Positions 4,489-44,156 are shown, numbered from the whole stretch's first letter. The stretch is DNA of 63,922 nt, filler included, from Candidatus Woesearchaeota archaeon CG1_02_57_44 (GCA_001871415.1; 3 parts of 3 records of this genome joined end to end with filler, not necessarily neighbours in it); one strand, 5' to 3'. Notes: generated by a model not told the origin, from the sequence alone. Numbers and translations are program-made.

Positions 4489-4546
4489 ACAACCATAGCC
4501 AACCATCCGAACAACCATAGCCAACCATCCGAACAACCATAGCCAA
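4489..4546. repeat. 22-bp tandem repeat, about 2.6 copies (ACAACCATAGCCAACCATCCGA)
   Basis: Units at 4489-4510, 4511-4532 and partial 4533-4546. Confidence 0.95.
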
Positions 4547-4884: not shown

Positions 4885-4954
4885 TTCAATCACACCGCAC
4901 AGGCAAGACACCTGCTCAGCAGGCTAGCGCTCGACATCGCTGCCAGGGAGTACC

Positions 4955-6310: not shown

Positions 6311-6408
6311 GATTCTTGCCTCCATTCATGTATGTTGTTCATGTACCGTTCGCGTTCATCATGTACCGTTCGCTTTTGTCAGGTGATACGAGTCCCACCC
6401 CTGCCTCG

Positions 6409-8941: not shown

Positions 8942-9198
8942 AGGTTCCACCTCAAGGTCGTTTTATTATCCATGAAGAAAAGGACAGGACATGCGATGGA
9001 AAGGACAGAATATGCAATGAAGAGAACAGGAAATGCGATGAAGAGAACAGGATATGCGATGAAGAGAACAGGAAATGCGATGAAGAGAACAGGATAGGCG
9101 ATGGATGCCAGCATGCAGCAGCGTCGAGCAAGGCCGCCCTGCGCCACGCGCCGCTGCGCCGGCCCGACCAGTTTCCGACGACCAGGATCGCGTCTCAT
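8938..9198 (-). CDS. Possible small repeat-derived membrane protein, (IAYPVLF)n
   Basis: ATGA overlaps with both the upstream gene's stop (9195-9198) and the gap start (8938-8941); hydrophobic 7-aa repeats. Confidence 0.4.
   Translation of the reverse strand: MRRDPGRRKLVGPAQRRVAQGGLARRCCMLASIAYPVLFIAFPVLFIAYPVLFIAFPVLFIAYSVLSIACPVLFFMDNKTTLRWNL
8972..9103. repeat. 21-bp tandem repeat, about 6 copies (ATGCGATGAAGAGAACAGGAW)
   Basis: Units start at 8991, 9012, 9033, 9054 and 9075, with degenerate flanking copies. Confidence 0.95.
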
Positions 9199-9929
9199 TT
9201 CAGCACCGTCCCTGGCGGTATCCTGCCAGCCGCGAGCAGCGCTTCGGTCTGCTCAAGGCGTTCGAGCGTTCCGATGTCGCAATGGTAGTTGCCCGGCTGC
9301 ACATGGCAATACGCCTGTCCAAGCGCGACGTACTTCGGGATCACTTCTGACGAGAAATCACGTCCATAGCCCACAAGCTCATCTTCCAGCAGCCGTGGCT
9401 CGCAGATGAATTCAGGGATATTGGCAAGCAACGGCAGCGTCGGTTTCTCTTCCCAGGACACGATCTTGCCCAGATCGTCTGTCGAGAGATGGCTCGTTCC
9501 GACCGGGATGCCCCATAGCCCTGCCATAGTGATGGTCGCCTTGCGTCGCTCATGGAACTCGCGCATCTGCAGATAGTTGGTGCCTGAAAGTGTATCACCG
9601 TAGACGACAAGAAACGGCTCATCCGGTGTCAGGTATGGTGCCGCTTTCGCTATCTCCCCAGCGGTGTTGGGCAACTGCAAAGGATCATCTGGACTCGCCG
9701 CGTAGTGAAGCCATACACCCAGCCGCTCTCCGTCGCCGAGATAGTCTTGTATCTGCTGGCCCTTGACGCCACAGGTGACGACGATCTGCCTGACTTGATT
9801 GTCCCGCATATGGTCGATGATGCGCTCGATGAGCGGCTTGCCCGCGACAGGCACCAGTGACTTGGGGATATCATTCGTCAATGGGCGCATCCGCGTGCCA
9901 AGACCGTTGGCGAGTATGACGCCATTCAT
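9195..9929 (-). CDS. NDP-sugar pyrophosphorylase / nucleotidyltransferase
   Basis: Motifs GVILANGLGTRMRPLTNDIPKSLVPVAGKP, VVYGD, EEKP and DIGTLE. Confidence 0.9.
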   Translation of the reverse strand: MNGVILANGLGTRMRPLTNDIPKSLVPVAGKPLIERIIDHMRDNQVRQIVVTCGVKGQQIQDYLGDGERLGVWLHYAASPDDPLQLPNTAGEIAKAAPYLTPDEPFLVVYGDTLSGTNYLQMREFHERRKATITMAGLWGIPVGTSHLSTDDLGKIVSWEEKPTLPLLANIPEFICEPRLLEDELVGYGRDFSSEVIPKYVALGQAYCHVQPGNYHCDIGTLERLEQTEALLAAGRIPPGTVLK

Positions 9930-11005
9930 GCGATCACCTCCATCAGTACATCCTTGTGTTCCGCCGTGAATCCCAGATACGCCACAGCGGCGAGCGTCCC
10001 CTGGATGGCGCAGTCGATAGGACCTTTGCCCGCCAGCTGCGCGTAGAACACGCCGGCCGCGTGGGCATCGCCAGCGCCGCAGCTCGCCGAGTCCCGTGCT
10101 GCGATAGCGTTGCCTACCTGCGCCTTGGCGGCATCGGTGAGCTGCACCTGATACACATGATCTCCTTGGGCGACGAGCGTTCCTGCAGAGCCCAAGGTGA
10201 CATAGAGGCCCAGCTGCTTCTGCAGCGAGGAGAACTGCCCGATAGCAGACAGAGGATTTGCATCGCGAGCCACATATCCTATCTCGTCCTGGTTGAGCTG
10301 GCAGGCGGTCCGGTCTATCACCGTACTCAGGACATAGTCTCGCGGCAGGCTCTGGGTGACCACAGCGAGCTGTGTCTTGCCCGACTGCATCGCCCGCTCG
10401 AGCAGGAATGGATCCTTGGCGCTGTTGACCAATACAGCGTCAGAAGCGTCAAGCACCGTACCGATCCAGTCATGGTGCAATGGCGATATGGTCGGCTGCG
10501 TGATCTCGCTCCTGAGTATGACCTTGTCCGCCCTGCCGCCGACAACGAGGTTGAAGGGCATGGGCCTGCAGGAGAGAAAGTATGGCTCGATGCCCAGCGC
10601 AGCAAGATCCTGCGCCGCCGAGACTCCCGGCCTGCCAGTGTCCAGCGCGGGCGTTGACAGGTCAAGATAGCGTAGTAATTCAATAGGTGCATCCCGGGGT
10701 GCATCTGGCGCAGACCTAACAACATCAGCGTGCCCCCCTATCAGGCCCGCGAGCACAGTCGCGCTGTTGTAGCCCCCACCGCCGAAACGCGGCGTCCATG
10801 GCACCGTCAGGTCATACAGGAGCGTTGCCACCGTGTATTTCCCTCCGGCAGCGACAGGACCGCCTCTGCCATCGTCACGGGATGGGACCTCGACTGCCAC
10901 AGGCCCGGAATGGGTCATGAACGTCAGCATATAGTCGCCAACGCAGGCAGGACATCCGATGATCCCGTCAAGGGTCGCATTCCCGATGATGGTCGCAGTG
11001 CTCAC
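9926..11005 (-). CDS. Divergent PfkB-family carbohydrate kinase
   Basis: Motifs IIGNATLD, FGGGGYNSA, NQDE, VTLGSAG and SCGAGDAHAAG. Confidence 0.78.
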   Translation of the reverse strand: MSTATIIGNATLDGIIGCPACVGDYMLTFMTHSGPVAVEVPSRDDGRGGPVAAGGKYTVATLLYDLTVPWTPRFGGGGYNSATVLAGLIGGHADVVRSAPDAPRDAPIELLRYLDLSTPALDTGRPGVSAAQDLAALGIEPYFLSCRPMPFNLVVGGRADKVILRSEITQPTISPLHHDWIGTVLDASDAVLVNSAKDPFLLERAMQSGKTQLAVVTQSLPRDYVLSTVIDRTACQLNQDEIGYVARDANPLSAIGQFSSLQKQLGLYVTLGSAGTLVAQGDHVYQVQLTDAAKAQVGNAIAARDSASCGAGDAHAAGVFYAQLAGKGPIDCAIQGTLAAVAYLGFTAEHKDVLMEVIA

Positions 11006-11114
11006 GCTATGTTCGCCTCATGGTGCAGCTCGTGCGCGACGCCTGACGTTACCGGCCTATGCTCGGAGCCAGGGCGCCATCGCGTCTCGCAGGCTTGCCT
11101 GTTGATGCCGCCGC

Positions 11115-11597
11115 TCAGGCGATGGCATCGTCTGTCCCGCAGAGGAACTGCTCCTCCGCGAGAGTCTCAAGGATGGGGAACGACTCTGCTTCCGCGCCGA
11201 ACTGCTCCCCGAGCTCTTCGGTGAAGCGGTGCGGATCGAGCAGGTTGGGAAAGACCATCTCGAGCAGGTAGTCATAGCGATGGTTGGTGCGATACACGCC
11301 ATTGCAGTTGGCGTGCTGCCGGGCGAACTGCTCAAAAGCGACACGCTGCGGCTTTGGCACGCGCAGCGCGAGCATGGTTCGGACCGGAAGGCCTAGCGCG
11401 GGAAAGTCCAGCAGGCAGGTGTGCCTTGCGATGTACTTGCGCTCGTGGCTGCGCAGCTTGTCATAGACCGTGGTCGCGGGCAGGCCCATGCGCTTGGCGA
11501 TATGGGTGACCTTGGTGCGCGCGTTCTGTCGCAGATGCTTAAGGAGCATCTTGTCCGAGGGGACCAGTTCCATCGCCGCATGGTAGATGCCGACCAT
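11115..11597 (-). CDS. Lrp/AsnC-family transcriptional regulator
   Basis: HTH 'DKMLLKHLRQNARTKVTHIAKRMGLPATTVYDKL', then LLDFPALG and a C-terminal ligand domain with 'YDYLLE'. Confidence 0.88.
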   Translation of the reverse strand: MVGIYHAAMELVPSDKMLLKHLRQNARTKVTHIAKRMGLPATTVYDKLRSHERKYIARHTCLLDFPALGLPVRTMLALRVPKPQRVAFEQFARQHANCNGVYRTNHRYDYLLEMVFPNLLDPHRFTEELGEQFGAEAESFPILETLAEEQFLCGTDDAIA

Positions 11598-11729: not shown

Positions 11730-12677
11730 ATGAAACGAAAGATCATCCAGCAGGGCAACAACACGCTGACCATAACGCTGCCGAGGCCATGGGCCAATGA
11801 GCACGCGCTCAAGGCCGGCATGGAAGTGGATGTCGAATGCCTGGGCCCGAGCATGCTCGTGCACGCAGGTCAGCGCAAGGCGGTGCGCACGGCGACGTTG
11901 GACGTCTCCTCCATGGACAGGACCTCCCTGATGCTCTGGATCCGCGGCCTGTACCGGCAGGGGGTCGATGACATCACCGTGACCTGGAAGGACCAGACCG
12001 TCATGCACTACCGCACAGGCAAGCCAGTGAAGGTAATCGCGGCCATCCATCTGGAGGTGAGCCGTCTCATCGGAGCGGAGATACTGGAGGAAGCCGAGCA
12101 CTCCTGCCGCATCAGGTGCATAGCAGGACAACCGCTCGATGACCTTGACGCCATGCTGCGCAAGATATACCACCAGCTGCGTCAGGTGGCGACCGACTTC
12201 GGCAATGGCCTCAAGGAGCGCCAGTGGGACCTCTTGGCAGCCACCGAGGAGAAGCATGACACCATAACGAAGTTCACGAGCTACTGCCTGCGCCTGCTCA
12301 ACAAGCAGGGCGCGGTAGGGACTGCTGCTTCATTGCAGTATGTCAGCATCAATGCGGTAGACATCATCGTTGATGCGTACAAGTACGCCGCGCGCGACCT
12401 GGTCGAGCACAAGCCGAAGATGAGCCCCAAGGCGGCAGAGATGATGCTGCGCATCTGCGATTTCACCCAGGAGTTCGCTTCGACTGCGTTCTCAGAGAAA
12501 TCAGCGCACGCATCAGAGCTGCTGCGAAAGCGCGATATCTTCCTGCGCGACCTGCGCGAGAGAGGCCCAAAGCTCACCGGGTCTGAGCTGCTGGAGGTGA
12601 CGCGCCTGAGCCAGGTGCTGCAGGTCATGTGGGAGCTGCTGGGAGCGAGACTGGGGATGATGGATGCGATAAAGTAA
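11730..12677 (+). CDS. AbrB/MazE-domain PhoU-like phosphate uptake regulator (archaeal type)
   Basis: N-terminal MKRKIIQQGNNTLTITLPRPWA (AbrB-like), followed by helical PhoU-like segments ('YCLRLLNK'). Confidence 0.85.
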   Translation: MKRKIIQQGNNTLTITLPRPWANEHALKAGMEVDVECLGPSMLVHAGQRKAVRTATLDVSSMDRTSLMLWIRGLYRQGVDDITVTWKDQTVMHYRTGKPVKVIAAIHLEVSRLIGAEILEEAEHSCRIRCIAGQPLDDLDAMLRKIYHQLRQVATDFGNGLKERQWDLLAATEEKHDTITKFTSYCLRLLNKQGAVGTAASLQYVSINAVDIIVDAYKYAARDLVEHKPKMSPKAAEMMLRICDFTQEFASTAFSEKSAHASELLRKRDIFLRDLRERGPKLTGSELLEVTRLSQVLQVMWELLGARLGMMDAIK

Positions 12678-12678: not shown

Positions 12679-12750
12679 GCATTACTGAAGTCAAGCATTA
12701 CTGAAGTGAAGCATTACTGAAGTGAAGCATTACTGAAGTGAGGCATCACT
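12679..12750. repeat. 16-bp tandem repeat, 4 copies plus a partial (GCATTACTGAAGTGAA)
   Basis: Units at 12679, 12695, 12711 and 12727; lies at a convergent gene junction. Confidence 0.95.
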
Positions 12751-13134
12751 ACGGGAGAACGCCATCACTCCGCCCAGCTGACGTTCTGCAAGCAGAGGGT
12801 CAGGTGCCGGAGCAATACAGCCAGCAAGGTGCAGATTCGGGATGGCAGGATTGAACGCAAGGCCGGCCAGCGCGTCGTAGTCCGCGACGAGCGCCTGCGA
12901 GAGCTGCCTGAGATGCGGCTCATGCAAAGCGTCCCGAAGGTGCAATAGCAGCGGCGCCCAGCCGTAGTGGAGGATGCGACCTTCTTGGCCAAAGAGTTCA
13001 GGCACGGGAAAGCTTAAGCAGCATTCCCAGCAATCATTGACGCTGACCTCACCACGGTTGATCGGATCGGCGAACTCCGTGATGAGCAGCAATTCCATGT
13101 CTGAGCGTCGCATCTGCCCATGGGATTCATCCAC
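12730..13134 (-). CDS. RQSD-motif paralog A (type 1), C-terminally truncated, probable pseudogene
   Basis: MRRSDMELLLITEFADPINRGEVSVNDCWE...FNP..L..A..APAP aligns with paralogs B and D. The ORF stops inside the 16-bp repeat at 134 aa, versus 310-355 aa for intact copies. Confidence 0.7.
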   Translation of the reverse strand: MDESHGQMRRSDMELLLITEFADPINRGEVSVNDCWECCLSFPVPELFGQEGRILHYGWAPLLLHLRDALHEPHLRQLSQALVADYDALAGLAFNPAIPNLHLAGCIAPAPDPLLAERQLGGVMAFSRSDASLQ

Positions 13135-13234
13135 CGGTCATCACCGTGAAGATCTTGGCCAGCAGCGCCTCAAGGTCTGATTGGCGCATATTCAGGCCCA
13201 GTGCCCCACCACCTGATTCCAGTTGAATTTCCAT
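13127..13234 (-). pseudogene. RQSD-motif paralog F, 35-aa remnant (not in the ORF track)
   Basis: Manual translation MEIQLESGGGALGLNMRQSDLEALLAKIFTVMTGG*; GAGG RBS; stop overlaps the start of paralog A. Confidence 0.6.
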
Positions 13235-13279
13235 TCCATTCCTCAATGCTCTGATTACATCGACAAACGCCGACACGCA

Positions 13280-14215
13280 TCACTTCTCCGCAGCCCTGCG
13301 CTCACGCATCCCGTGCGTGATAGCCTCATACCCCCAGCCCCCGACGCGCTCGAAGGTCTGCCGGGACATGCAAGCAAGAGTGCATGTCCAGAGTATATCA
13401 GTGATATCTTCTTGATTACTGATCATCCCCTGCGTCCTGATACCGAAATCAGGGCCCATCTGCAACGTGCCATCGCGGACCTGGCGGCGGATATCATATG
13501 CCTGGCGGGCCAGATACATCTGGGAGAAAAACTTCCCGTCATAGACATAGATAGGCAGCATCTCCCGCAGAGCTGATTCCTGCTCAAAGCGAGCCACCAC
13601 ACCGTCAGGATCCTCTGCCACACCCCGGTATCCGGTCCCATCATTCGCGCACAATGCCAGATAGAACGCCCGCAGCACATCCTCTGGCGATAGCTCCGTG
13701 CACGATGACCAATGATACTGACTGACCAGACCATAGAGCGCATCCCCCATAGGCCTTACGCGCTCGAGCACATCAGCGTCAGCAGTGCGGGCGATTTGAT
13801 ATAACCAGAAGGGAGCAGACTCGAGCATCCATGTCTCGGTCCCGACGATCCCATCCAGTATCCGATGCGCAGTCAGCCCATGCGGCGTTGGCGCCAGGAG
13901 AACAGCGGCTTGCAGATTTGTCCGATAGGGATTGAAGAGCAAGGTCTGGCCGAGATCCCAGTCACCTATGAACGCATCATATAATTCCTCTGCCCGTACT
14001 GGCTCGAGCAACCGGGCCGCAAGAGACAACAACGGCAGCCATTCGGCGTGGAGAACAGGCCGATGCGCACCGAAGAACTCCGGAACCTTGGTATCCCACC
14101 AGTATTGCCTGCAATCCTCGACAGTGACAGCACCGTTGTTGATATCTGCGGCAGCCAGCCGGGTCAGGAGCAGCTGCTCATCAGAATGCCGCAGGGTCTG
14201 CGCAGGCTCAGTCAT
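13280..14215 (-). CDS. RQSD-motif paralog B (type 1), unknown helical protein
   Basis: LRHSDEQLLLTRLAAADINNGAVTVEDC...FNPYRTNLQAAVLLAPTP...FWLYQIARTAD; start overlaps the upstream stop. Confidence 0.8.
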   Translation of the reverse strand: MTEPAQTLRHSDEQLLLTRLAAADINNGAVTVEDCRQYWWDTKVPEFFGAHRPVLHAEWLPLLSLAARLLEPVRAEELYDAFIGDWDLGQTLLFNPYRTNLQAAVLLAPTPHGLTAHRILDGIVGTETWMLESAPFWLYQIARTADADVLERVRPMGDALYGLVSQYHWSSCTELSPEDVLRAFYLALCANDGTGYRGVAEDPDGVVARFEQESALREMLPIYVYDGKFFSQMYLARQAYDIRRQVRDGTLQMGPDFGIRTQGMISNQEDITDILWTCTLACMSRQTFERVGGWGYEAITHGMRERRAAEK

Positions 14216-15137
14216 GCGGCATCACCGTCAATGCTGATGGCCGGACGCGATGATGAAGCACCCGTTGCGCATCATAGCTCACCACGGTCTCCCCCTCACG
14301 CTGCGGGAAGTCAGGTCGCATACCAAAAGCGAGCGCATCACGATAATCCTCACGACGCAGACCACCGACCTGATAGCAATAGTGATGTGCCCTCCGCTGC
14401 GCCGCCACATCTTCGGATGCTAGTGCCTGCTGGATGTCGCAGCCAAAGAACTCCTGGAAGGGGGCAGCTCCATAGATAGTGGGGATGAATGTCGGGACCC
14501 AGAACGAAGGCGGCAGAAAGTCTATCCGCATAAGATCCGTCGGGACGCCACATTCATCGATCACCATCCGTTCGGCATAGCCATCCCATGCCTTTCGCTC
14601 CACATCGATGATGCCGGCGATATGCTGCTTGCCTCGCAATGCTTCTTCACCCGCCACCCTCTCGCCAGCAAGAAGGCAACAGACATAATCACGTACCTCA
14701 CCAATCCTCTCGTCCTGCAGTATAGTCCTTTGCAGCGTAGCCACAATGGCATCCTTGGATACATGCGCACCGGCGACTATGTGCAGCTCGGCTGCGAACA
14801 GGACATCATCCAGGAACGGATAGTATGGTGAAGGTGACGGCGCAGACTGCTGCGCATTGATGAGGCACCCTATCAATTGCTCGGAAGCTGCGCCATCCAA
14901 GTGAAGGTATATGCGCATGAGATACGGCTTCCATGCAGGGAGCAACGCTCTGCCGGCATACCCCCACAGCCCTGCGTCCTCTTCGTAGCTCCAGCACTGC
15001 TCCCAGCAGTCCTGGACAGTCACCGTGCCATCATTGATAGCGTCAGCGAACTGCTGTGCCAGCAGCACATCAAGGTCGGACTGGCGCAAGGAGGACATGA
15101 GGATGCGTTCGTCAGGGAAGACGGCAGAATCACTCAC
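14208..15137 (-). CDS. RQSD-motif paralog C (type 2), unknown helical protein
   Basis: LRQSDLDVLLAQQFADAINDGTVTVQDCWE...YYPFLDDVLFAAE...LHHRV; GGAGG RBS before GTG 15137, overlapping the upstream stop. Confidence 0.8.
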   Translation of the reverse strand: MSDSAVFPDERILMSSLRQSDLDVLLAQQFADAINDGTVTVQDCWEQCWSYEEDAGLWGYAGRALLPAWKPYLMRIYLHLDGAASEQLIGCLINAQQSAPSPSPYYPFLDDVLFAAELHIVAGAHVSKDAIVATLQRTILQDERIGEVRDYVCCLLAGERVAGEEALRGKQHIAGIIDVERKAWDGYAERMVIDECGVPTDLMRIDFLPPSFWVPTFIPTIYGAAPFQEFFGCDIQQALASEDVAAQRRAHHYCYQVGGLRREDYRDALAFGMRPDFPQREGETVVSYDAQRVLHHRVRPSALTVMPHD

Positions 15138-16194
15138 GAAAATCCCTCCAGGAGACAATATTTGCCATGGTGATATCCCGTCCCGAGCCGGGCGTGTAGC
15201 CAAAAGGATATCGCATGGCATACCTCATGCAGATGAGCTCGAATGTCCAGAGACCTTGCATACTGAGTCTTAGGTCGCGGTCGGGATTCGGCACAGGGCA
15301 TCCCTTTGGCAGCTTCGATCCGGTCATGAGATGATCAAGGACGCGATAGGACCACTCCGCCTCCTCCAGCGCGCGCCCGTACAGACACTCGCTGACCGGA
15401 TACGGAAGCGGAGGGAAGAGCGTATGCGTATCGTCGACCACAGGGACCTTCAGGTCCAGGGAGATACGAGGTTCCGGAGGAGGACGATGAGACGTCCCGC
15501 TCGGGCTTGTCGATTCATCTGCGCCTGGTAGAGAATGCAGGAAATGATAGATTGATCCAGGGACATCCCGATAGGACGAATCATCCGATAGGAGGTCCGA
15601 AGCCATGAGGAGCGGGAAACACCGCACCCACCCTGCGGGAAAATATTTCTGAGACGCCCTTTGGATGCGCCCGGCAATCATGCCGCTGTTCTGGGCGACC
15701 ATCGCGGTCGTGCCAGCGTCAGCAAGCCTGCTTGCGTGGTACATCCAGAAGTCAGGTTGGCGGGCAGCCCAATCTGGCCCGCCCAGGATAGCATGGACTA
15801 GTTCTCTGGAAAGGGGCCCGAAGGGAGCTGGTGCGACAAGCGCGGCACCTTGCAGACTCGTGAGATAGGGATTGAAGATCCTGTCAGCACCGGATTGCCA
15901 ATCCGCGAGAAGCCGTGATGCCAGGGCATCTGCGACTTCGTGGTCCAGAAGTCCTCGGGCAGGCAGGAGGACGTGCAACCATCCTGCATGGAACACCTTC
16001 CTCTGGCAGCCGTAGAAATCAGGAAGCGCAACACCCCACAGGTGATCGCAGCAATCCTCCACAGCTATCTCACCAGTATTGAGTGCATCAGCGAACTGCT
16101 GTGCCAGCAGCACCTCAAGGTCGGACTGGCGGATGGGTGCGAGAGATTCATCTGCTGAAGGCAGCCCTTGCGCACGTTCATGCTCAGGGCGCAT
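15130..16194 (-). CDS. RQSD-motif paralog D (type 1), unknown helical protein
   Basis: IRQSDLEVLLAQQFADALNTGEIAVEDC...FNPYLTSLQGAALVAPAP...FWMYHASRLAD; GGAGGT RBS before ATG 16194. Confidence 0.8.
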   Translation of the reverse strand: MRPEHERAQGLPSADESLAPIRQSDLEVLLAQQFADALNTGEIAVEDCCDHLWGVALPDFYGCQRKVFHAGWLHVLLPARGLLDHEVADALASRLLADWQSGADRIFNPYLTSLQGAALVAPAPFGPLSRELVHAILGGPDWAARQPDFWMYHASRLADAGTTAMVAQNSGMIAGRIQRASQKYFPAGWVRCFPLLMASDLLSDDSSYRDVPGSIYHFLHSLPGADESTSPSGTSHRPPPEPRISLDLKVPVVDDTHTLFPPLPYPVSECLYGRALEEAEWSYRVLDHLMTGSKLPKGCPVPNPDRDLRLSMQGLWTFELICMRYAMRYPFGYTPGSGRDITMANIVSWRDFRE

Positions 16195-17176
16195 CGTTGC
16201 CACCTCCCTGAGCTGAAAGGACGCGATGGTGCAGTGCCGCAAGGACCTGCTGATGCAGCCCCCGGTACGCCCCCTCTGGTGATACGGGTGCATGACGCAG
16301 CGCCTCGAGGGCTTCGCGGCAGTAGGATTCCGGCACATCCTCGCTTCGGGCGGCTCGCTCCAGCAGGTGATACGTCCCGGGATTTGCTTTTGCGATCAGG
16401 GCTGCCGCATCGGCCAATGCAGGAGCCGCGAAGACCTGTCCCCGGCAGGGCTCTGTCTCGCGGTGGAAGGTTTCCGTGAGACCGGTGAGCGATTCCCAGT
16501 CTCCCTTCCCGAATGCCCCCATGCCCGCGTGGTGCGGCCAGCCGCCGTTGCTGATGAGCACATGAGGATCCGATGGTGCGTGATAGCCCTTGAGCACATG
16601 ACTATCATAGGAAGTTGACCTATCAATCCCGTCGAAGAACACCTCAGCCGTGTGAACCAGCAGCGCGTCGCGCTGCTGCCATCGCCCGAGGCGATCGTAC
16701 TGCGTGTCCTCATTGTACATGAGGTCAGCGATGAGATGCACGCGGGCATCGTTGAAGTAATCCACGATGCGCGGTGTCATGGACACGACCTTGCCGAGTC
16801 CTCCGTTCACTTCTGCTCCGAGCAGGAAATCGCCGAGAAGCGGATGATATGCATCCAACGCAGCCCCGCTGTCCAGATATGGCCCGCAGAGCCTCTCGAC
16901 CAGCGCCCCTCCTGTCACCGCATCCATCAGCGTCGACGCGTGCAGCAGCGGCCGACGCAGCGCTGGAAGCACAAGGCGATGCGCCTCGCCAAAGCTCGTG
17001 TCCTCGAAGGTGAGGAAGTGCTCCCAAAGGTCATTGAGAGTGACTGCCGGCGTAGGTGAACCATCCTCAAGCGCGCAGGGATATCCCTTGACCGCGTCAG
17101 CCATCATGCAGCCTTGCATCACTTCAGCGTCAGAGCCGCGCATCCGGGTGCAAAAGCCATTCCACTCAGGCATCAT
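16184..17176 (-). CDS. RQSD-motif paralog E (type 2), unknown helical protein
   Basis: MRGSDAEVMQGCMMADAVKG..VTLNDLWE...YHPLLGDFLLGAE...LHHRV; ATGA overlap with the NACHT gene stop and a GGAGG RBS. Confidence 0.75.
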   Translation of the reverse strand: MMPEWNGFCTRMRGSDAEVMQGCMMADAVKGYPCALEDGSPTPAVTLNDLWEHFLTFEDTSFGEAHRLVLPALRRPLLHASTLMDAVTGGALVERLCGPYLDSGAALDAYHPLLGDFLLGAEVNGGLGKVVSMTPRIVDYFNDARVHLIADLMYNEDTQYDRLGRWQQRDALLVHTAEVFFDGIDRSTSYDSHVLKGYHAPSDPHVLISNGGWPHHAGMGAFGKGDWESLTGLTETFHRETEPCRGQVFAAPALADAAALIAKANPGTYHLLERAARSEDVPESYCREALEALRHAPVSPEGAYRGLHQQVLAALHHRVLSAQGGGNDAP

Positions 17177-19401
17177 GTCCCTCCTGCTGCCTTGCGCGCC
17201 GCGATGATCTGCGGGATACCCCACCCTTCCGCCAGACGCGCTTCAAGCACAGCTTCAGGAACACCCTGAGGAAACTCCAATGCCTGCAACAACGCCAGCG
17301 TCCCTTGGCGATGCAGCATCTTCTGGACATGCGGTTCCCTGGCTGTTTCATACGCTCTTCGTCGCTGGGCTCTCAATGCTTCTGGCTCACCGTCAGGAGC
17401 ATGCTGCAATCTCCTGAGACGCTGATAGTCCCGATTGGTCGGGTTCTTCAGCATGTCATGCTCAAGCAGACTGAATCCAAGGCCGCGAAGGTAGATGGAA
17501 GTTGGATTCGGATGGTCATCAAGGAAATCCGGATCCTCCTGCGCAACCTTTACCAGCGAGTACAGGCGCAGATAATTCTGCCGGAAGACAGGATCCTGGT
17601 TGTCCAGCACATGCCTGAACCAACGACGCTTCCCTGCGTCCTGCCAACGCGCGGCGATATACGTATCCAGACTTCCCATGATATGCTCGGTGTCGATGTC
17701 AAGCACCTGATAGCGACCGCTTGCGCTGTCAAGCCCGAGAGGCCTCGTGGTGACGATCACCTTGCCGGGCATCCGCTGCATCGCGTCAAGAAGCAGCGCT
17801 TGGAATTCAGGCGATTCGTCCAGCCCGTCTATCATCGTGACGAGCTGATAGTCATCGCGCAAGGTCGCCGGCAAAGCATCCCACTTACCCGAAAGATGCG
17901 CAACCAGAGCCGCGGTGCTGATTCCCTGCCCGTGGCTCTCCAGATCCGCGCTCAGGTCTCGCGCGATGACGAGATTGGCGACGTATCCCGGACGGGCATT
18001 GACATCCCGTACGAGCTCTGTCATAAGGATGCTCTTGCCTGAGCCCATCTCAGCCTGGATGATCGTCGGCACGTTCTGGTCGAGGATGTCCTCGACAGAC
18101 ACCGGTCGCACATCATAGGTCCGCGCTCCTGATGGGACAAGCACCTGCTCCATGATGTGCCCCTCCGGCCGCTTACCATTGGCATTGCGCACCAGTTGAT
18201 CGTAGCTGAGATTCAGCAGTCTGGCCCGGGCCGATACTGTCCTCTCGGTATACTCGCCCAGCTGTCGCGGATCATTCGTGTAGCGCATATCCTCATCAGC
18301 AGCCACGTGGATGATCTCGCCGCGCACCTTGGGCTTGGGCCTGCGCATGATGTTGATGGTATGCTGGTCTTCCTGATGATACAGCCATGAGAGAGCAGCA
18401 TCGAGCGTTCCACTGGGGAGCACGATATCGACAACCCTTCCCTGTATCACGTCATGCAACGGGCCGGCGAGCAAATCCATGAACTCGTACGTGCGCATGG
18501 CCATCATGATGCGGTTCTCTGAGATGGGCAGGCCTTGCTCGTGTGCGGCGTACGCAGGATCTTTCATGCCAGCGAGCCGGGCTTCGGTCCGTTCGAAGTC
18601 ATGGATGGCATCTTGTTCACTCTTTCCTTTCTGCACGACGCGTCGTATGTATTCAGGCTTGAAGGCGTCCCATTGGGCCTGCAGAGCATCTCGTTCGACT
18701 CCCTCAGGAAACCAGCTGGGATGCCGCTCAGGCCAGAGCTCGGCGTCTCGCTGGTACATGGTGCGAAGCAGGGGCGTGGGTATGATGCCGCGCTCCACGC
18801 AGAGGCCAATCAAGGCGATGTAATAGGAATGATCAACCGTATGGTGCACCGCGATATCTCGCTGTACCTTGAGCGCCATCGCGTCTAGACGCTCTTGCAG
18901 GTCATGATCATCAGGAAAATACATGCACAGCGCATCATCCATGGTGCGCAGCGCGTCAGCGACGACAACAACATCTGGCGCGCGTGCCAGGTATGGTTTC
19001 ACTGCGTCTGGCGCCCTCTCCGGAGCCCCGTAGTGCTCGATGCCGGCTGCCTGCTGCTCAACCAACCTCTTGCCGGTCTCATCAAGCATCGAGCCCTGCA
19101 CGCCCGTGCGCAGGTGTGCGGCATTGGTGTCGGTCTGCGCATGCGTGCGGAAGGTCAGCCAGGTATGGATTCCTTCAGGAAGCTCATGTCGTGGCGAGGC
19201 ATAGTGTGCGCTTGTCATCAGTTGCTCTAGTCCCTGCGCGCCCAGCTGGTTGAGCTCAAAGAAGAAGCCGGCAGAATCCGGCATGATGACATTCCCTTGC
19301 TGACGGCAGGGGAAACGAAAGACATTGTGCTCATACTGGCGCAGCTGCTCCTGCACAACCGCGCTGTCAAGGACCGGTGCGTTATAGTGCTGGAAAGTCA
19401 T
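17173..19401 (-). CDS. NACHT/STAND NTPase with N-terminal degenerate histidine-phosphatase-like domain and no repeat sensor
   Basis: Walker A AEMGSGKS, Walker B VTMIDGLDE, sensor-1 VIVTTRP. N-terminal FRTHAQTDTN...MLDETG...ALRT...VLPSGTLDA parallels the His-phosphatase motif order. Confidence 0.8.
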   Translation of the reverse strand: MTFQHYNAPVLDSAVVQEQLRQYEHNVFRFPCRQQGNVIMPDSAGFFFELNQLGAQGLEQLMTSAHYASPRHELPEGIHTWLTFRTHAQTDTNAAHLRTGVQGSMLDETGKRLVEQQAAGIEHYGAPERAPDAVKPYLARAPDVVVVADALRTMDDALCMYFPDDHDLQERLDAMALKVQRDIAVHHTVDHSYYIALIGLCVERGIIPTPLLRTMYQRDAELWPERHPSWFPEGVERDALQAQWDAFKPEYIRRVVQKGKSEQDAIHDFERTEARLAGMKDPAYAAHEQGLPISENRIMMAMRTYEFMDLLAGPLHDVIQGRVVDIVLPSGTLDAALSWLYHQEDQHTINIMRRPKPKVRGEIIHVAADEDMRYTNDPRQLGEYTERTVSARARLLNLSYDQLVRNANGKRPEGHIMEQVLVPSGARTYDVRPVSVEDILDQNVPTIIQAEMGSGKSILMTELVRDVNARPGYVANLVIARDLSADLESHGQGISTAALVAHLSGKWDALPATLRDDYQLVTMIDGLDESPEFQALLLDAMQRMPGKVIVTTRPLGLDSASGRYQVLDIDTEHIMGSLDTYIAARWQDAGKRRWFRHVLDNQDPVFRQNYLRLYSLVKVAQEDPDFLDDHPNPTSIYLRGLGFSLLEHDMLKNPTNRDYQRLRRLQHAPDGEPEALRAQRRRAYETAREPHVQKMLHRQGTLALLQALEFPQGVPEAVLEARLAEGWGIPQIIAARKAAGGT

Positions 19402-19516
19402 GGGCAGTCTCCGTGTTGTTCATCGCGCCTCACCGGCACAGGTGTTGGTTCCAGCCGGCCCGATTCCGGATTCTGGCGGACTCCGACACCACCTGAAAGG
19501 GAGAAATAGCCCGCGG

Positions 19517-19525
19517 TTTATAAAA
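19517..19525 (-). promoter_or_regulatory. Putative TATA box for the NACHT/paralog operon
   Basis: TTTTATAAA on the minus strand in the 183-bp gap between the two NACHT genes. Confidence 0.5.
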
Positions 19526-19584
19526 GATGTAGCAGGTGAGTACGAAAGTAGTAGCGTCAGATCATGCCTGCGCCATCGCTCCTG

Positions 19585-22500
19585 TCACATCTGTTCTGGA
19601 CGCGCATCTGCGCTGAGGAATTCCGTATTATCCACTGGTTTCCAGAGTCCATCGTGCGCGCGGATGTCATACGCCATGAACAGGCTACGGGACGATTTGC
19701 CTGCTTCGATGGCCTGCTCCTCAAGGCCCATGAGTCTATAGGTCGTGCTTAGCTCGTGCTGTGTCCTCGCGGCGCCAAGGTAATTGTCTATCTGCTGCCA
19801 GATGCTGTCCGCGACCATCAGGTGATGTATCGCATGATCAAGCTTTCCCTGCGCACGCTGTGCCTTCGCGAGTTGCACATGGCAGTAGGCAGCGCGGCGA
19901 GGGAAGTAGACCTGCTGGCTCACGTTCAGGGCCAGGTGAGCAAGCTCTTCCGACTCTTCGAAGTCCCCCATGCGCTCGCTGATGCAGGACAACCCGAGGT
20001 AGCACTCGGCTACGCCGCGCAGGTAATGCTGCTCCTCGAGAACCGGGAGAGCGAAGGAATAGAGGCGTTCTGCTTCTCCAAGGTGCTGGAGGTCCGGTGA
20101 GTCATCCTTGGTCCTGCCCCAATTGTGCAGATGTATCTCTGCCAGCTGGATCTTGCATCGCGCCGCGTTACGATCATCGTCCTTGCTGCGGACAGAGCCA
20201 CGGCCATCACCTGAGAAGAACCCATGACATTCCTTGTAGATGTCCCATGCCGCGCGGGCACCATTGATGGCCTTGATGACCAGCGCGTATTCGAACAAGG
20301 CCAGGTAGTAGTCTGTCCCCCTCGTCTCGGAGAAGAGCTGCAGCGCTGTCTGGAAGTGGTCTGCTGCGAGCTGCTGCGAGTTGCAGAGCCGAAAGGACCT
20401 GCCCAGCTGGACGTGCGCCTGCGCCGCGAGCCATGGACGAACATCCTCTTGCTCGAGCACCTCGCTGAAGCTGGCAGCTGCCAGGCGATAGTGCTCGGTG
20501 TTGTAGTGGATGAGGCCAAGACGGTAGTAGGCGAGGTCTGGCGGCGCACTCTCCAGAACCAGGTCAGAGAGATAGCCGAAGCGGGATGCGGCACTGGTGC
20601 GCGGGGCGAACGATGCGATCGTCTTGATGGCGTACGCGCGCACCGTATCGAGCGGCATGATGTTCTCCAGCAGAGGTGCGAGAAGGTTGCGCACCAGGTC
20701 AAGCGACACCGCTGGCATCTCGGGAAGGCTCGCGACGAGCGGCTCGAATCGCTCCTGCTCGGCCAGGTCCAGGAGCAGCGATGCATCCCCTGTCAGGCCG
20801 ATATAATAGGGCATGGCAGACTCATGGGAGATAGTTCCCGGGTTGAGTGCGCGCTTCTCGGTGATGGCATGGCGGGCGAGCAGATAATCCTGCCAGCTCA
20901 GATGCAGGAAGCGTGGCCCTCGACGAGTGGTATGAATCAGACGTGATGACATGCCGGGAGGAACGCTCATATCACCGAGCGTGAAGTCCCAGGCGATGGC
21001 AGCGAGCCGGCGTTTCGTGGAGGAGACCTCTGCGTAGAGCTTGTTGGGGCTGAGCAACTGCCCTTTCTCGCTGAGGACATCCTCAAAGACCTGTGCTGTG
21101 AGCGCGCCTTCCATGACCAGCCCCTTGGTGATAGGGATCTCACCGCGGAACGCGCGCACCGCGATATGCCTGATGCTCTCCACATCGATGCAGCGCAGGA
21201 GCTGGAAGGGATCCTCATGCACCAGTTCGCTGAGCAACGCAAGGGTCTGGTAATGGCCGCTCACCGTGTAGTGGCAGGCGCTCAGGCGTCGTTGGATCTG
21301 ACCGGCCAGGGAGCATTCATCGGCAGGATCACCCGGAAAATGGCTTGTGACGAATGAACCGACGTTGCTTGAGATGCTACGCCGGTCGATGGAGTGAGCA
21401 GAGAAGCCAGGGACTGCATCAGGACGTTTATTGAGCTCAAAGGGCCTCGCGAATGCCACGACCTTGTGCCCCTCCGCGCAGATCTGCGATAGTCCTTCTC
21501 GCATCGGCTCCAGGAGGGGGGGACTGCAATCATGCAAATCATCGATAAGGAACAGGTAGCGCAGGTCCAAGGGCGCGCCGGGCGGCATCGTGCAGGACCA
21601 TCGAGCCTGGCCTGATGCGCGTCGCAGGAGATAGTCACGCATCCGGTCGCCGTCCTCAGGTATCCCGAAACGCAGCTCATCATTGAGCTCCTCGGCCGTG
21701 AGCGTGACCAGGGCGTATCCTTTTGTCTGTGGATACAGGCCCATCTCATGGTCGAGCACGATCTTGGTCCTCAGCCAGGTCTTTCCGGTTCCCGGATGCC
21801 CATAGATGAGGACAGGCACCTGCATGGCCAAAAGCTGCTCCAGGGCAATGCCTTGCCGTCCTGCCTCAGTGCCGACCACCTGAAGCGGGATCTCCGAGAA
21901 GAAATGGGCGCTGTAGCGGGCGTGTTCCTCAGAAGTGCGATCAGAGGGGAAGAGCGGCGAGTGCTGGACGCGCATATCCAGGGAGCGACGAAGGGCCCTG
22001 CGGGCATCATTGCCCGCGTTGGCTGTGAGACCCCGACCATACGCGGGATCATTGAGCCAGAGTAGTGCAGGATTCACCTTGCAGCAGACCCGCTCTCCTC
22101 TGTGGTCGGGCTTGTCGCGCATGCTGACCTGCGCGGCCTGCGGCGCCAGTCTATGACGGAAATATGAGAACGCCCCGTCCAAAAACCCGCTCGGGATGAT
22201 GAAGTGCACATCCTGGCCTTCCAGGGACGCCATGACCTGCGGGGACGAGAACATGCCAAGGACCTGATAAGCGCGATGGGCCATCAGGAATCTGTTCTCG
22301 CTCAGCACATGACCTTCGTGCTCCAGGGTGGTCATGATATCGCCAGAGGCCTTGATGTGCGATTCGATGATGCCATAGAGATCCTGCGCGTCACGCAAAG
22401 CCATGCCAGACTCCCTGCAGCCAGCGACATACCATTGCTTGAAGTTCTGCCATTTGCGCAATGATGCGTCACGCTCGTCTGACCCCTCCGGAAAGATGCT

Positions 22501-23061
22501 ATAGTGATGGACAGGCCAGAGTTCGCTGGGACCCCCGCAGACCGTGCGCAGTCCGGAGGTGACAAGGACATTCCGGTCAAGGCAGAGTCCGGCGAGGGAC
22601 ACATAGTCATCGAGGGATATCCGGCGATGAGCATCATGGTGCGCATCGATACGCAGGGCCATCTCGCGCAATTGGGCGCGAAGCTCCTCATCATGAGGAT
22701 GCGAGAGCAAGAGGGCATAGTGCATGGTGCGCAGCGAATCAGCCGCCATCAGCAGCGCAGGGCGTTGTTGCATGATGGCCGCCTCATGGAGCGCGTGCGC
22801 CTCGCCAGCTGTGTCGAGCATCGTGCCCTGAAGGCCGGTGCGCTCGCCCTTGGTGTTCGTGCGCGTCGGACCGTGGGTATAGAACACGAAATGGGAATGT
22901 ACATTGGGCTCAAGCTCTCGGGGTTCGGGGAGTTGCTCTTGCAGCGCATGCTCCAGCAGCTGACCCATCCAGTCCTTGCTCCTCTTGATGAGCTCAAAGA
23001 AGAAATCATGAGGGTCATACGTCGTTCCTTCGACAGGGAACCTGAAATCATTCCGGCGGAA
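19585..23061 (-). CDS. NLR-like protein: degenerate His-phosphatase-like domain + NACHT + TPR repeats (5' truncated at contig end)
   Basis: Walker A GHPGTGKT, atypical Walker B FLIDDLHD, NACHT winged-helix motif FLHLSWQDYL and TPR-like tail (AYYRLGLIHY, AHVQLGRSF, AECYLGLS, ARTQHELS). The frame stays open upstream of 22968 to the gap and still aligns with the paralog (NDFRFP...DFFFEL). Confidence 0.85.
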   Translation of the reverse strand, partial: FRRNDFRFPVEGTTYDPHDFFFELIKRSKDWMGQLLEHALQEQLPEPRELEPNVHSHFVFYTHGPTRTNTKGERTGLQGTMLDTAGEAHALHEAAIMQQRPALLMAADSLRTMHYALLLSHPHDEELRAQLREMALRIDAHHDAHRRISLDDYVSLAGLCLDRNVLVTSGLRTVCGGPSELWPVHHYSIFPEGSDERDASLRKWQNFKQWYVAGCRESGMALRDAQDLYGIIESHIKASGDIMTTLEHEGHVLSENRFLMAHRAYQVLGMFSSPQVMASLEGQDVHFIIPSGFLDGAFSYFRHRLAPQAAQVSMRDKPDHRGERVCCKVNPALLWLNDPAYGRGLTANAGNDARRALRRSLDMRVQHSPLFPSDRTSEEHARYSAHFFSEIPLQVVGTEAGRQGIALEQLLAMQVPVLIYGHPGTGKTWLRTKIVLDHEMGLYPQTKGYALVTLTAEELNDELRFGIPEDGDRMRDYLLRRASGQARWSCTMPPGAPLDLRYLFLIDDLHDCSPPLLEPMREGLSQICAEGHKVVAFARPFELNKRPDAVPGFSAHSIDRRSISSNVGSFVTSHFPGDPADECSLAGQIQRRLSACHYTVSGHYQTLALLSELVHEDPFQLLRCIDVESIRHIAVRAFRGEIPITKGLVMEGALTAQVFEDVLSEKGQLLSPNKLYAEVSSTKRRLAAIAWDFTLGDMSVPPGMSSRLIHTTRRGPRFLHLSWQDYLLARHAITEKRALNPGTISHESAMPYYIGLTGDASLLLDLAEQERFEPLVASLPEMPAVSLDLVRNLLAPLLENIMPLDTVRAYAIKTIASFAPRTSAASRFGYLSDLVLESAPPDLAYYRLGLIHYNTEHYRLAAASFSEVLEQEDVRPWLAAQAHVQLGRSFRLCNSQQLAADHFQTALQLFSETRGTDYYLALFEYALVIKAINGARAAWDIYKECHGFFSGDGRGSVRSKDDDRNAARCKIQLAEIHLHNWGRTKDDSPDLQHLGEAERLYSFALPVLEEQHYLRGVAECYLGLSCISERMGDFEESEELAHLALNVSQQVYFPRRAAYCHVQLAKAQRAQGKLDHAIHHLMVADSIWQQIDNYLGAARTQHELSTTYRLMGLEEQAIEAGKSSRSLFMAYDIRAHDGLWKPVDNTEFLSADARPEQM

Positions 23062-23161
23062 NNNNNNNNNNNNNNNNNNNNNNNNNNNNNNNNNNNNNNN
23101 NNNNNTTAATTAATTAANNNNNNNNNNNNNNNNNNNNNNNNNNNNNNNNNNNNNNNNNNNN
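23062..23161. other. Artificial contig linker (N44-TTAATTAATTAA-N44)
   Basis: Six-frame-stop 12-mer flanked by Ns; an identical structure occurs at 44040-44139. Confidence 0.97.
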
Positions 23162-23423
23162 AGGAGAACGAAAGCGGATAAGGACGCAACCATCAGAAGA
23201 ACATCGCGCCCATGAGCATGGAACAAAGGAATTCGGGGAAGGCGAAGCGTGTCCGGAATACAGGCGCACACGCTTATCTTGCAGCGTCGCCCCACCAGAC
23301 CCCATGCAAAAGGATTATGTACCTCAAGCACCAAAATCCCTTTCGTCGCGGTGCAACAACAGGCAACTTCGCTCAGAACCCTCTAGAAGAATAAAAACAA
23401 AAAACAGAATATTTATCAGCAAA

Positions 23424-23467
23424 TTTTGCATAAAATATGCAAAAATAGGCAATAAATATATATATAC
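23424..23467 (+). promoter_or_regulatory. Palindromic operator-like site plus TATA box upstream of the AAA ATPase
   Basis: TTTTGCATA-AAA-TATGCAAAA (23424-23444), then AATAAATATATATA about 25 nt before ATG 23487. Confidence 0.6.
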
Positions 23468-23486
23468 GATTGCCTTCCGTGCCCCT

Positions 23487-24725
23487 ATGCTCCAGACAAT
23501 AAGCATCGAGAACTTCCTATCCATACGAGACAAGCTCACGCTCAGCCTTGAGGCCAGCGCCAGCAAGAAGAACCTGCAGAACACCATAGCCCTGCCCAAG
23601 AAGGATCGGCTGCTCAGGAGCGTCGCGCTCTACGGCGCCAATGCCTCAGGAAAATCCAACATCATCAAAGCGACGCTATTCATCTGGGACATGGTGAAGA
23701 ACTCGCATGCCTTCAATATCGACAGTACCATCCCAAGGACGCCATACAAACTCGACGAGGCATGGGCGGGCAAACTCAGCAGATTCGAGCTGACATTCTA
23801 TCATAAGAGGATACGGTACAGATACGGATTCTCCTGTGATGACAAGAAAATAATCGATGAATACCTCTACCATTGGCCAAAGGGCAGGGAAGCACTCATC
23901 TTCAAACGGAGCTCAACCACGGACTTCACCTTCATCAAAGACAAGCGCCAACAACAGCTCATCAAGAAGAGGCTCACCCCCAATGTCCTCTATCTTTCCA
24001 GAGCGACCGCCCTGGGCCTGAAGGCCACTGCGCCCGCCTATGCATTCATAACCGACAACCTCGTCATCAACTATTCTCCGACATGGTTCGTCTACACCGC
24101 GCAGAAAATCAAGGAAGATCCTGCACTCAAGACCAGGGTCCTGGGCATCCTGGCCAAGGCAGACTTCGGAGGCATCCAGGACATCATGGTGAGTACGGAG
24201 AAGAAGAAGGTCGATGGCGTGGAATTCAGGATAGAGAAGCAGAGGAAGATATTCAACCATCTTGTCCAGGAAGAAAGGGAATTCAACGAGTTGAAGACCA
24301 TACACACCACAGCCAAAGGCAAACACCTCACCTTCAGTCTCAAGGAGGAGTCGGAGGGGACCCAGAAGATAATCTCCCTGCTCGGACCCCTCTTTGACGC
24401 CTTGGACAATGGAAAAGTCGCCATCATCGACGAGCTGGAATCGAGCCTGCACCCCAACCTCACCAGGTCGCTCATCCGGCTCTTCAACAGCAGAAAGAAC
24501 ACGAAAGGCGCCCAGCTCATCTTCACGACCCATAGCACGACGCTCCTTGACAACCGGCTCTTCAGGAGAGACCAGATCTATCTCTGCACCAAGGCGCCCA
24601 ACAAGCAGACACTGCTCAGATCATTCCTTGACTATGACCTCAGAGAGGACTCAGACTTCGAACGCGCATACCTGAACGGGCGGCTAGGAGGCGTGCCGAT
24701 AATAGACCAGACCCTCCTTGATTAA
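23487..24725 (+). CDS. AAA_21/RloA (AbiLi-like) ABC-type ATPase
   Basis: Motifs IENFLSI, Walker A YGANASGKSN, signature EESEGT, Walker B IIDELESSLHP, QLIFTTH and YLNGRLGGVP. Confidence 0.92.
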   Translation: MLQTISIENFLSIRDKLTLSLEASASKKNLQNTIALPKKDRLLRSVALYGANASGKSNIIKATLFIWDMVKNSHAFNIDSTIPRTPYKLDEAWAGKLSRFELTFYHKRIRYRYGFSCDDKKIIDEYLYHWPKGREALIFKRSSTTDFTFIKDKRQQQLIKKRLTPNVLYLSRATALGLKATAPAYAFITDNLVINYSPTWFVYTAQKIKEDPALKTRVLGILAKADFGGIQDIMVSTEKKKVDGVEFRIEKQRKIFNHLVQEEREFNELKTIHTTAKGKHLTFSLKEESEGTQKIISLLGPLFDALDNGKVAIIDELESSLHPNLTRSLIRLFNSRKNTKGAQLIFTTHSTTLLDNRLFRRDQIYLCTKAPNKQTLLRSFLDYDLREDSDFERAYLNGRLGGVPIIDQTLLD

Positions 24726-24726
24726 G

Positions 24727-25329
24727 ATGGCACGGCAACGCGGCTACCTATCCACACGCACGGTCTGGATATTCTGCGAAGGAACGACAGAACGCCTTTA
24801 CTTCGAAAAGCATCGGGTCGCAGAGCGGCTCTCAAGGCTACGCATCGAGGTCCAGCGGAGCAGGCGAACGGACGTCGAAGGAATCATCCACTACGCAGTC
24901 AACTACAGGAAATCAAACAGCCGCGACTTCCAGAAGGACGATCTCGTCTTCTGCGTCTTTGACTGCGATCAGAGCACAGAAGAACAGCTGCAGCGCTGCG
25001 AAAAACTCGCGAAAGATAATGGCATCATCCCAATCTACTCGAACCCATCGTTCGAGTACTGGCTCCTCTGCCACTTCGGGTATCACCCAGACTACTACTC
25101 CCAGACGGCCCTGATGCAGAAACTCAGAGAGCACCTTCCCGGATACGAGAAGGTTGATCCCAACACCTACGATCATATCAAGGAACGGCAACACCAAGCC
25201 ATAGCCAATGCCGAAAAAATATTGCGAGCACACCGCGGGGCAGGAACGCATATCCTAAGTACGAAGTGCAACCCGGTGACGCTCGTGCACCAATTGATGG
25301 AAACGATACAAGAGCTGCCGAAAGGATAG
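24727..25329 (+). CDS. RloB-family (TOPRIM-like, AbiLii-like) protein
   Basis: Motifs IFCEGTTERLYF, FCVFDCD, SNPSFEYWLLCHF and NPVT; directly downstream of the AAA ATPase. Confidence 0.92.
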   Translation: MARQRGYLSTRTVWIFCEGTTERLYFEKHRVAERLSRLRIEVQRSRRTDVEGIIHYAVNYRKSNSRDFQKDDLVFCVFDCDQSTEEQLQRCEKLAKDNGIIPIYSNPSFEYWLLCHFGYHPDYYSQTALMQKLREHLPGYEKVDPNTYDHIKERQHQAIANAEKILRAHRGAGTHILSTKCNPVTLVHQLMETIQELPKG

Positions 25330-44139: not shown

Positions 44140-44156
44140 CGAGAGGTAAGGGCGCG

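Follow-up and report, generated by a model that had tools for sequence, protein, structure and literature searches.

A stretch of 63,922 nucleotides (nt) from the genome of Candidatus Woesearchaeota archaeon CG1_02_57_44 (GCA_001871415.1), hereafter the window, harbours between positions 12,679 and 23,061 a series of co-oriented genes that appear to encode a split immune receptor of the STAND (signal transduction ATPases with numerous domains) class. According to this reading, to which we assign a probability of roughly 0.55 on the strength of sequence comparisons and structural models, a single 'head' protein, P0002, provides the effector slot and the nucleotide-binding part of a NACHT module, and would be completed in trans by alternative sensor 'tails' encoded in an array immediately downstream. 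Sequence and models together show that head and tails are complementary halves of one NACHT module. The initial annotation of this DNA had put forward a 'split NLR' (nucleotide-binding, leucine-rich-repeat receptor) that recruits array proteins in trans for defence: the split stands and can be sharpened to a cut inside the winged-helix domain (WHD), whereas recruitment in trans receives weak, computational support and defence is a matter of inference. The window consists of three contigs joined together, the first of which (C33, present whole at 1-23061) comes from a genome of 1.53 Mb that is 82% complete; genes past 23061 are thus not neighbours of the split-receptor locus. The attribution to a DPANN host is borne out.

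Genes of the locus

The locus comprises eight open reading frames (ORFs) on the minus strand, all of them present as annotated in ten kb of co-oriented genes, and in each the annotated frame has the best hexamer score under a model trained on other contigs (8/8). The features are as follows.

19585-23061, minus strand: fused receptor P0001, with a histidine-phosphatase-like domain, NACHT, a short WHD with F-x-H (around residue 718), helical domain 2 (HD2) and a TPR sensor
19517-19525, minus strand: TATA-like box TTTTATAAA, read by eye, about 116 nt ahead of the head start in the 183-nt gap; possibly the promoter of the head-tail operon
17173-19401, minus strand: head P0002, 742 amino acids (aa), with a histidine-phosphatase fold (residues 78-378), the NACHT nucleotide-binding domain (NBD) and helical domain 1 (HD1), and the first WHD helices
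16184-17176, minus strand: tail E, 330 aa, ATGA-coupled to the head, with GGAGG upstream; hypervariable among strains over its 5' 220 nt
15130-16194, minus strand: tail D, 354 aa
14208-15137, minus strand: tail C, 309 aa, the copy nearest the family consensus and the partner in the complex prediction
13280-14215, minus strand: tail B, 311 aa
13127-13234, minus strand: stub F, 35 aa, the first conserved helix only, a probable remnant
12730-13134, minus strand: stub A, 134 aa, the conserved WHD-end/HD2 part only, without a variable region
12679-12750, no strand assigned: 16-bp tandem repeat, 4.5 copies, which supplies the stop codon of A
11730-12677, plus strand: AbrB-domain regulator gene, convergent; it marks the locus in relatives and probably does not belong to the operon
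23062-23161 and 44040-44139: N spacers (TTAATTAATTAA) marking the contig joins

The P0001 frame is open to the end of C33, so its start lies outside the window; relative to its paralog P0002 the protein is some 22 residues short. The two share 27.5% identity over 600 columns (BLASTP, E 3e-54) and their genes are 183 nt apart. From P0002 to A, five of the six junctions are overlaps of 4-11 nt, the offsets being -4 (ATGA) for head-E, -11 for E-D, -8 for D-C, -8 for C-B, +45 for B-F and -8 for F-A. The predicted common N-terminal region of the array proteins is recovered by BLASTP (B-D 2e-31, A-D 4e-21, C-E 3e-9; in F the first helix only, E 6e-4 to D), and stub F DNA is 87% identical to the starts of C and D over 31-32 nt. 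This part of the earlier claim stands, yet the six array members are not equivalent partners: F and A are stubs, which leaves four full-length tails. Pfam reports strong TPR matches and sub-threshold NACHT matches for P0001/P0002 (NACHT E 0.005-0.006, under the curated cut-off) and no match for the five array proteins scanned (E, D, C, B and A).

An assembly artefact was considered and rejected: a 10,154-nt contig of run X1 (possibly the source) covers 12725-22878, and one of 5,743 nt from run X3 extends from the large gene to D. No rearranged joints are listed in the four DNA runs compared, all of them contigs, which drop rare variants. The DNA occurs in groundwater and aquifer metagenomes, five of which contain at least half its words (two of these are possibly the source); no RNA dataset is listed as carrying it.

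Two halves of one NACHT module

The AlphaFold2 model of P0002, built on 54 aligned rows, reaches a predicted local distance difference test score (pLDDT) of 90 and a predicted template modelling score of 0.86; the pLDDT of a prediction from a two-sequence alignment is 42. Residues 78-378 adopt a branch-1 histidine-phosphatase fold (CobC, Z 16.3, root-mean-square deviation (rmsd) 2.6 Å, 189 residues), which upholds the earlier assignment of the N-terminal domain, and residues 379-742 match NLRP3 (Z 14.0, rmsd 5.0, 287 residues) and NOD2 (Z 13.5), the top Foldseek hits. This model and the fold search establish NACHT, the Pfam matches falling below the cut-off. The P0002 model ends in three helices, with no strands past residue 569 and no wing, and the structural match to 8fvu_B stops at residue 415 of that chain. 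Among the full-length family rows, Walker A Lys and Walker B Asp are each conserved in 40/41 and the sensor Arg in 41/41. P0002 has the sequence DGLDE, and the corresponding D[GAS]hDE signature is found in 22/36 heads; P0001 (DDLHD) and a DDY(H/Q)K subgroup are without it.

A full histidine phosphatase catalytic set includes the RHG Arg, the second Arg and the second His. The head resembles branch 1 of these enzymes (PF00300) in its PGM-like fold, in the first, phospho-acceptor His (H87; 41/41 of the same rows) and in the second Arg (41/41), and differs from it in the missing RHG Arg, the frequent lack of the second His and the fusion to NACHT. The notion of an intact phosphatase site does not hold for P0001 and P0002, both of which lack the RHG Arg and the second His. 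Several relatives pass the Pfam cut-off for PF00300; compared by profile, the N-domain and the neighbouring His_Phos_1 protein showed no significant similarity. Where family members possess both histidines, the domain may have a phosphorylated metabolite or protein as its substrate; in this genome it may do no more than bind one. The effector slot is variable: the same truncated NACHT head occurs with a TIR domain (P0075, P0081), a DUF4365 nuclease-like domain (P0078) or a Ser/Thr kinase (P0076). For the P0075 TIR head, a match to the PADLOC bSEFIR model (E 1e-22) covers residues 2-402, beyond its TIR domain.

What the heads lack is found at the beginning of the tails. The shared N-terminus of the array proteins had been interpreted as a conserved helix mediating recruitment; the candidate of a new adaptor domain is rejected, since this region equals the C-terminal part of the WHD plus HD2, both absent from P0002. 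An independent NACHT profile, built from those 71 of 86 unrelated NACHT proteins that have a Walker A match followed by more than 330 residues, locates the cut. The head ends at or before profile position 387 in 36/36 heads, ahead of the wing and of F-x-H (419-421), and 15/36 stand-alone tail N-termini match the profile at E<=0.1, all starting at 401-423; reversed controls reach this level in 0/38 cases. A whole WHD with its conserved His was sought on the NTPase chain and not found: 36/36 heads end before the wing, with 1/36 matching a loose pattern. The complete domain with His is seen only in fused forms such as P0001, or when head and tail are combined. The five tails of this genome join NACHT through the family profile, and a profile made from the window only retrieves tails of other genomes with E values of up to 1.6e-18.

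In relatives, array proteins begin with the wing and an F-x-H-x4-[DE]-[FYW] helix, canonical or degenerate, and continue through HD2 into HEAT or TPR repeats. A whole stand-alone TPR tail from G148 (residues 5-375) aligns with residues 697-1089 of P0001 (26%, E 4e-24), and in P0073 the stretch 567-686 has 53% identity with the first part of a G074 tail; judging from such alignments, P0001 is the fused form of a head plus a tail. NLRC4_HD2 matches 2/38 rows, and a tail search among long proteins gave 5 weak hits from 8000 candidates scored. A C-terminal KPQGY-like motif is present in 17/44 tails and fused proteins. Sequence searches of the PDB with the tail alignment or a fused protein found no NLR.

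The supposed interaction of the short NACHT protein with its array partners was modelled for head residues 415-742 plus tail C residues 1-160, and the outcome is weakly favourable: the complex scores 0.56, whereas the best of three controls scores 0.00. Contacts coincide between runs to at least 54%, and the partner has a pLDDT of 72 or higher. In calibration, 116/157 solved complexes and 2/215 mismatches reach the mark that was applied.

Distribution and diversification of the tail arrays

Profiles were needed to find relatives, because single-sequence searches retrieved only this organism or nothing; the ESM Atlas gave no match at 0.9 or above. Window-only profiles detect tails in nine and heads in eight of 400 other genomes of the order, and in seven genomes from six families the two lie side by side, as expected of an array family that co-occurs with the NACHT head. 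Refined profiles, built partly from the searched genomes and therefore not independent, find 11 genomes with tails and 9 with heads among 401, and a phylum sample of 301 genomes yielded four hits, all in the same order. No relative was found on viral contigs, and plasmids gave only TIR-length matches to P0081. Sixteen distinct loci have DNA downstream of the head (L059/L061 and L055/L057 being close kin). A tail gene follows the head directly in 16/16, and two or more tails are present on the same contig in 15/16, with up to nine seen. One of these loci and some alignment rows come from the unpublished G131, on which alone no conclusion rests. Stand-alone tails lacking a head on the same contig are confined to arrays cut off by a contig end (G074, G070:C23, G072:C5). 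The NACHT 'pair' that the initial annotation placed at the top of the system proves to be local: two heads stand in tandem in 1/16 loci, in this genome only, and a tandem pair is rejected as a defining feature.

A search of 1.84 billion representatives with a profile returned 57 matches at E<=1e-30. Among the 40 representatives covering both head domains, 36 are head-only proteins (636-806 aa), some of which could be contig-cut, and four are fused. The head-only ends are stereotyped at two points, after WHD helix 1 or just past helix 2. To judge by these sequences, the split form is the norm in the family. Fused forms are scattered on a quick tree and were gained or lost at least four times; P0001 and P0002 group together (support 99), but both are long and compositionally odd. 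In three genomes a Ser/Thr kinase comes after an intact NACHT that has the same HD2 (L043:3108-7882, L045:736-6104, L139:6561-11248). The intact NACHT-HD2-repeat genes of these three genomes have no evident effector and occupy a similar AbrB-flanked site. An AbrB-domain homologue is convergent downstream in 12/14 loci with flanking DNA, upstream in one and unconfirmed at a contig edge in another; a weak hint of a PhoU-like C-terminus appears in 1/9 homologues of this regulator (PhoU E 0.001).

Comparison of arrays points to rapid change. The four tails of L047 are 80-92% identical in their first 190-240 nt and 88-98% in their last 45-66 nt, with unrelated middles. L059 shares a block of 2,687 nt at 99.6% with L061 and one of 3,941 nt at 99.85% with G074; three internal block ends sit 7-104 nt into tail genes, and outside the blocks the three arrays differ. 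Tail heads cluster by genome (23 changes against 41.4 in shuffles), and the five of this genome form one branch with a support of 99. These sequence patterns indicate that tail arrays are mosaic and recombine in their conserved 5' ends. Of the 40 differences listed for run X3 (out of 128), 17 fall at 16955-17178, the first 220 nt of E, and among the differences listed 13/17 changed codons in E are non-synonymous; this hypervariable start would be either an imported allele or a product of diversifying selection. Other strain variants lie at window 16117-16119 (L26M in D) and at the 5' end of C, where P0019 reads as in F; gene conversion among tail heads would produce such variants at the starts of D and C. 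In L061, the last of nine tails (15570-16587) is broken into two ORFs.

The remainder of the window offers several observations of its own. A sugar-phosphate cluster at 2435-11597 encodes His_Phos_1 (PGM-like), PGI, two PfkB-like proteins, GAPDH, a nucleotidyltransferase and an AsnC regulator, and parts of it recur beside the split-receptor system in relatives. Intergenic tandem repeats at 8977-9103 (21 nt, 6 copies) and 4489-4546 (22 nt, 2.6 copies) resemble the 16-nt repeat that ends gene A. On a separate contig, at 23304-25329, a low-GC ATPase gene (473 aa) overlaps a 203-aa gene, a duo that presumably corresponds to an AAA_21/RloB-type pair. The same 60 nt open seven contigs (window 44140-44199; G000 contigs C9, C37, C49, C52, C63, C66, C74) and are a repeated element at contig ends; for the end of C33 no overlapping contig was found in the genome. 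An 888-codon frame near 7467 (+) of G000:C22 has a weak match to a generic NACHT profile (E 5e-5) and is possibly a further STAND gene.

Proposed receptor assembly, alternatives and meaning

The mechanism proposed for the split receptor is as follows. The head would consist of an effector slot (here histidine-phosphatase-like), NBD, HD1 and the first one or two WHD helices, and the tail of the rest of the WHD (third helix, wing and the helix at the F-x-H position), HD2 and a variable sensor, made of HEAT or TPR repeats in relatives and of unclassified sequence in this genome. Encoded in one operon, head and tails would be co-translated; each tail would dock by completing the WHD, giving several receptors with one common output. 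As the cut lies inside the WHD and not at the hinge between NBD-HD1 and WHD, a tail that completes the domain would take the position that the sensor arm has in an intact NLR. Ligand binding to the tail would release an ADP-bound closed state, whereupon the head would oligomerise and switch on the effector. Recombination between the conserved 5' ends would add, drop and chimerise tails, and P0001 would be a sister head that captured one TPR tail. The likeliest role is the sensing of viruses or other invaders. According to PMC13581612, Avs7 at rest binds ADP and makes a His-phosphate contact, and on activation NBD-HD1 rotates by ~90 degrees against the WHD; 10.1101/2022.07.19.500537 ascribes the same ADP-contact role to His443 in the WHD of NLRC4. 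Taken separately, assembly of head and tail in trans is quite probable and an immune role, by a slightly smaller measure, likely. The most ambitious version, a combinatorial immune system with one head, up to nine co-expressed tails, fragment complementation through a split WHD, a recombining tail library and swappable effectors, is tentative and would fall a little short of an even chance.

A number of findings weigh against the split-receptor reading. None of the five tails of this genome matches the independent NACHT profile on its own (0/5), their variable parts match no family and no other tail, and the copy as a whole is diverged, with two of six tails reduced to stubs. Its tails lack the WHD His, as do 24/36 tail N-termini under a strict pattern, so that the textbook His lock is not general. 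The ranges matched in NLRP3 and NOD2 extend into HD2, unlike that in 8fvu_B. The mark is reached with a score of 0.60 or under by only 18/157 solved complexes, yet by both mismatches, and the head-tail prediction may have passed through likeness to solved NLRs, as the halves of a split gene can. The phosphatase-like output is the weakest step of the model: the catalytic site is non-canonical, with the RHG Arg in 0/41 rows and the second His in 26/41 (replaced by Pro in both P0001 and P0002), which places this output in doubt. The TIR, nuclease and kinase heads are known as proteins alone. The genes around the locus are housekeeping and regulatory, with no recognised defence genes among them, and together with the AbrB regulator they leave some probability to a regulatory role.

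Such a role is the substance of one alternative, in which the architecture is split as described and the tails sense cellular or host proteins for housekeeping or host-contact signalling; the substrate of the phosphatase-like domain would then be a sugar-phosphate or phosphoprotein, and the domain might counteract the kinase found in the related intact systems. It would agree with the AbrB-type regulator adjoining 13/14 loci, with the sugar-phosphate genes near the locus in this genome, with the three genomes having an intact NACHT and a Ser/Thr kinase at such a site, and with the existence of some non-defensive STAND clades, as reported in PMC13581612. In G161, one tail carries a response-regulator receiver domain inside its repeats (L042:10478-11758) and a histidine-kinase-like ATPase gene lies convergent at the array end (L042:15308-16084), which would also suit signalling. 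A conflict system, on the other hand, better fits the patchy spread (heads in 9/401 genomes), the rapid tail turnover between near-identical strains and the TIR/nuclease swaps on the same head, and we regard the signalling role as unlikely. A cassette reservoir, in which the tail beside the head is used alone and distal tails are reserves shifted forward by recombination, is improbable to the same extent. Its model is the orphan cassettes of polymorphic toxins, tandem variable C-terminal modules with conserved 5' ends that recombination reshuffles and moves into first place. The likeness of the L047 tails at their 5' (80-92%) and 3' (88-98%) ends, strain differences in blocks that break in tail heads, the clustering of tails by genome and the distal position of stubs F and A would all follow from it. 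However, the shared segment is missing from the main gene here, which prevents recombination from fusing a tail to the head, and each module has its own start, which allows use independent of DNA fusion, unlike in toxin cassettes. Distal tails retain these start codons, tight coupling and long open repeat regions, and the first tail would still need binding in trans.

A frameshift, slippage or readthrough might instead join the head and the first tail into an ordinary NLR. The -1 frame at 8/16 head-tail junctions, an A-AAA-AAG with an open -1 frame in G148 and the gain or loss of fused genes at least four times lend this some colour, as does G161, whose first tail has no ATG/GTG/TTG before the motif and whose head stop is preceded by a run of 11 A with an open -1 frame. 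But five junctions are in frame 0 and three in +1, and this use of all three frames argues against recoding; in 15/16 first tails a start codon of their own lies between -17 and +15 nt from the head stop, a stop closes the -1 frame in G310, and tails 2-9 would be left unexplained. Uniform recoding is rejected, as no frame or signal is conserved across the 16 loci, with G161 a possible exception, and recoding in general is very unlikely. The G161 run of 11 A (L042:9640-9700) could be a slippage-dependent or phase-variable fusion, or an assembly error. Scarcely more credible is decay, whereby the family is real while the head-tail operon of this genome is drifting and the fused P0001 is the working receptor. 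The two stubs, the loss of the WHD His, of the second phosphatase His and of recognisable repeats, and the long branches speak for it, whereas head and four tails remain open with coding-type hexamer scores, no insertions or deletions are listed in the four runs, and the head keeps Walker A, the DGLDE signature, the sensor Arg and a confident fold.

The split receptor also departs from the systems already named. In sensor-helper NLR pairs (NAIP-NLRC4, plant paired NLRs), a number of sensors report to a single signalling subunit, but each partner has a whole nucleotide-binding module; tails here have no NTPase and would complete a domain of the head. According to 10.1101/2022.07.19.500537, bNACHT proteins follow the same effector-NACHT-repeat sensor plan, with HEAT, TPR, pentapeptide and beta-propeller sensors and with TIR, nuclease and kinase effectors, and share the D[GAS]hDE Walker B with 22/36 heads, P0002 included. 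Their module and sensor form one chain and short forms keep the WHD, whereas in the present system the cut runs through the WHD and each sensor has a gene of its own in the array; effector, NTPase and sensor lie on one polypeptide in P0001 but not in the head. 'Split' and 'phosphatase' are absent from the main text of that paper, whose supplement could list the clade. Avs/AVAST receptors (PMC13581612) resemble the present system in the ADP-closed to ATP-oligomer switch predicted here, in helical-repeat sensors and in exchangeable effectors; there one gene is one receptor with one sensor, unlike head-tail arrays. The word 'split' occurs there once, for the Avs7/Dsr1 annotation, and a keyword search of its seven supplements gave no match; its survey kept only C-terminal regions of at least 400 aa on the NTPase chain, so that heads such as these would drop out of its sensor analysis. 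PADLOC and NCBIfam give generic TPR, HEAT and TIR and weak NTPase matches, far below cut-offs where these are given, and no Avs model, in keeping with the expectation that no named system would be found. A literature search, with most subscription papers outside its reach, found no description of a WHD-split STAND protein with arrayed tails; one head with many plug-in tails appears to be an undescribed way of building receptors.

STAND receptors from bacteria to people have been described as single chains in which the sensor is tied to the ATPase through the WHD. If the reading is correct, a WHD cut kept across many families of one archaeal order means that the switch can be assembled in trans, and a small genome could maintain a broad and rapidly changing set of sensors for the price of a single head. 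Surveys that read sensors off the NTPase chain alone would miss such split systems. With this locus the STAND effector slot gains a phosphatase-fold domain, and modular receptors built in the laboratory gain a split point found in nature; DPANN immunity or host sensing acquires a concrete system open to testing.

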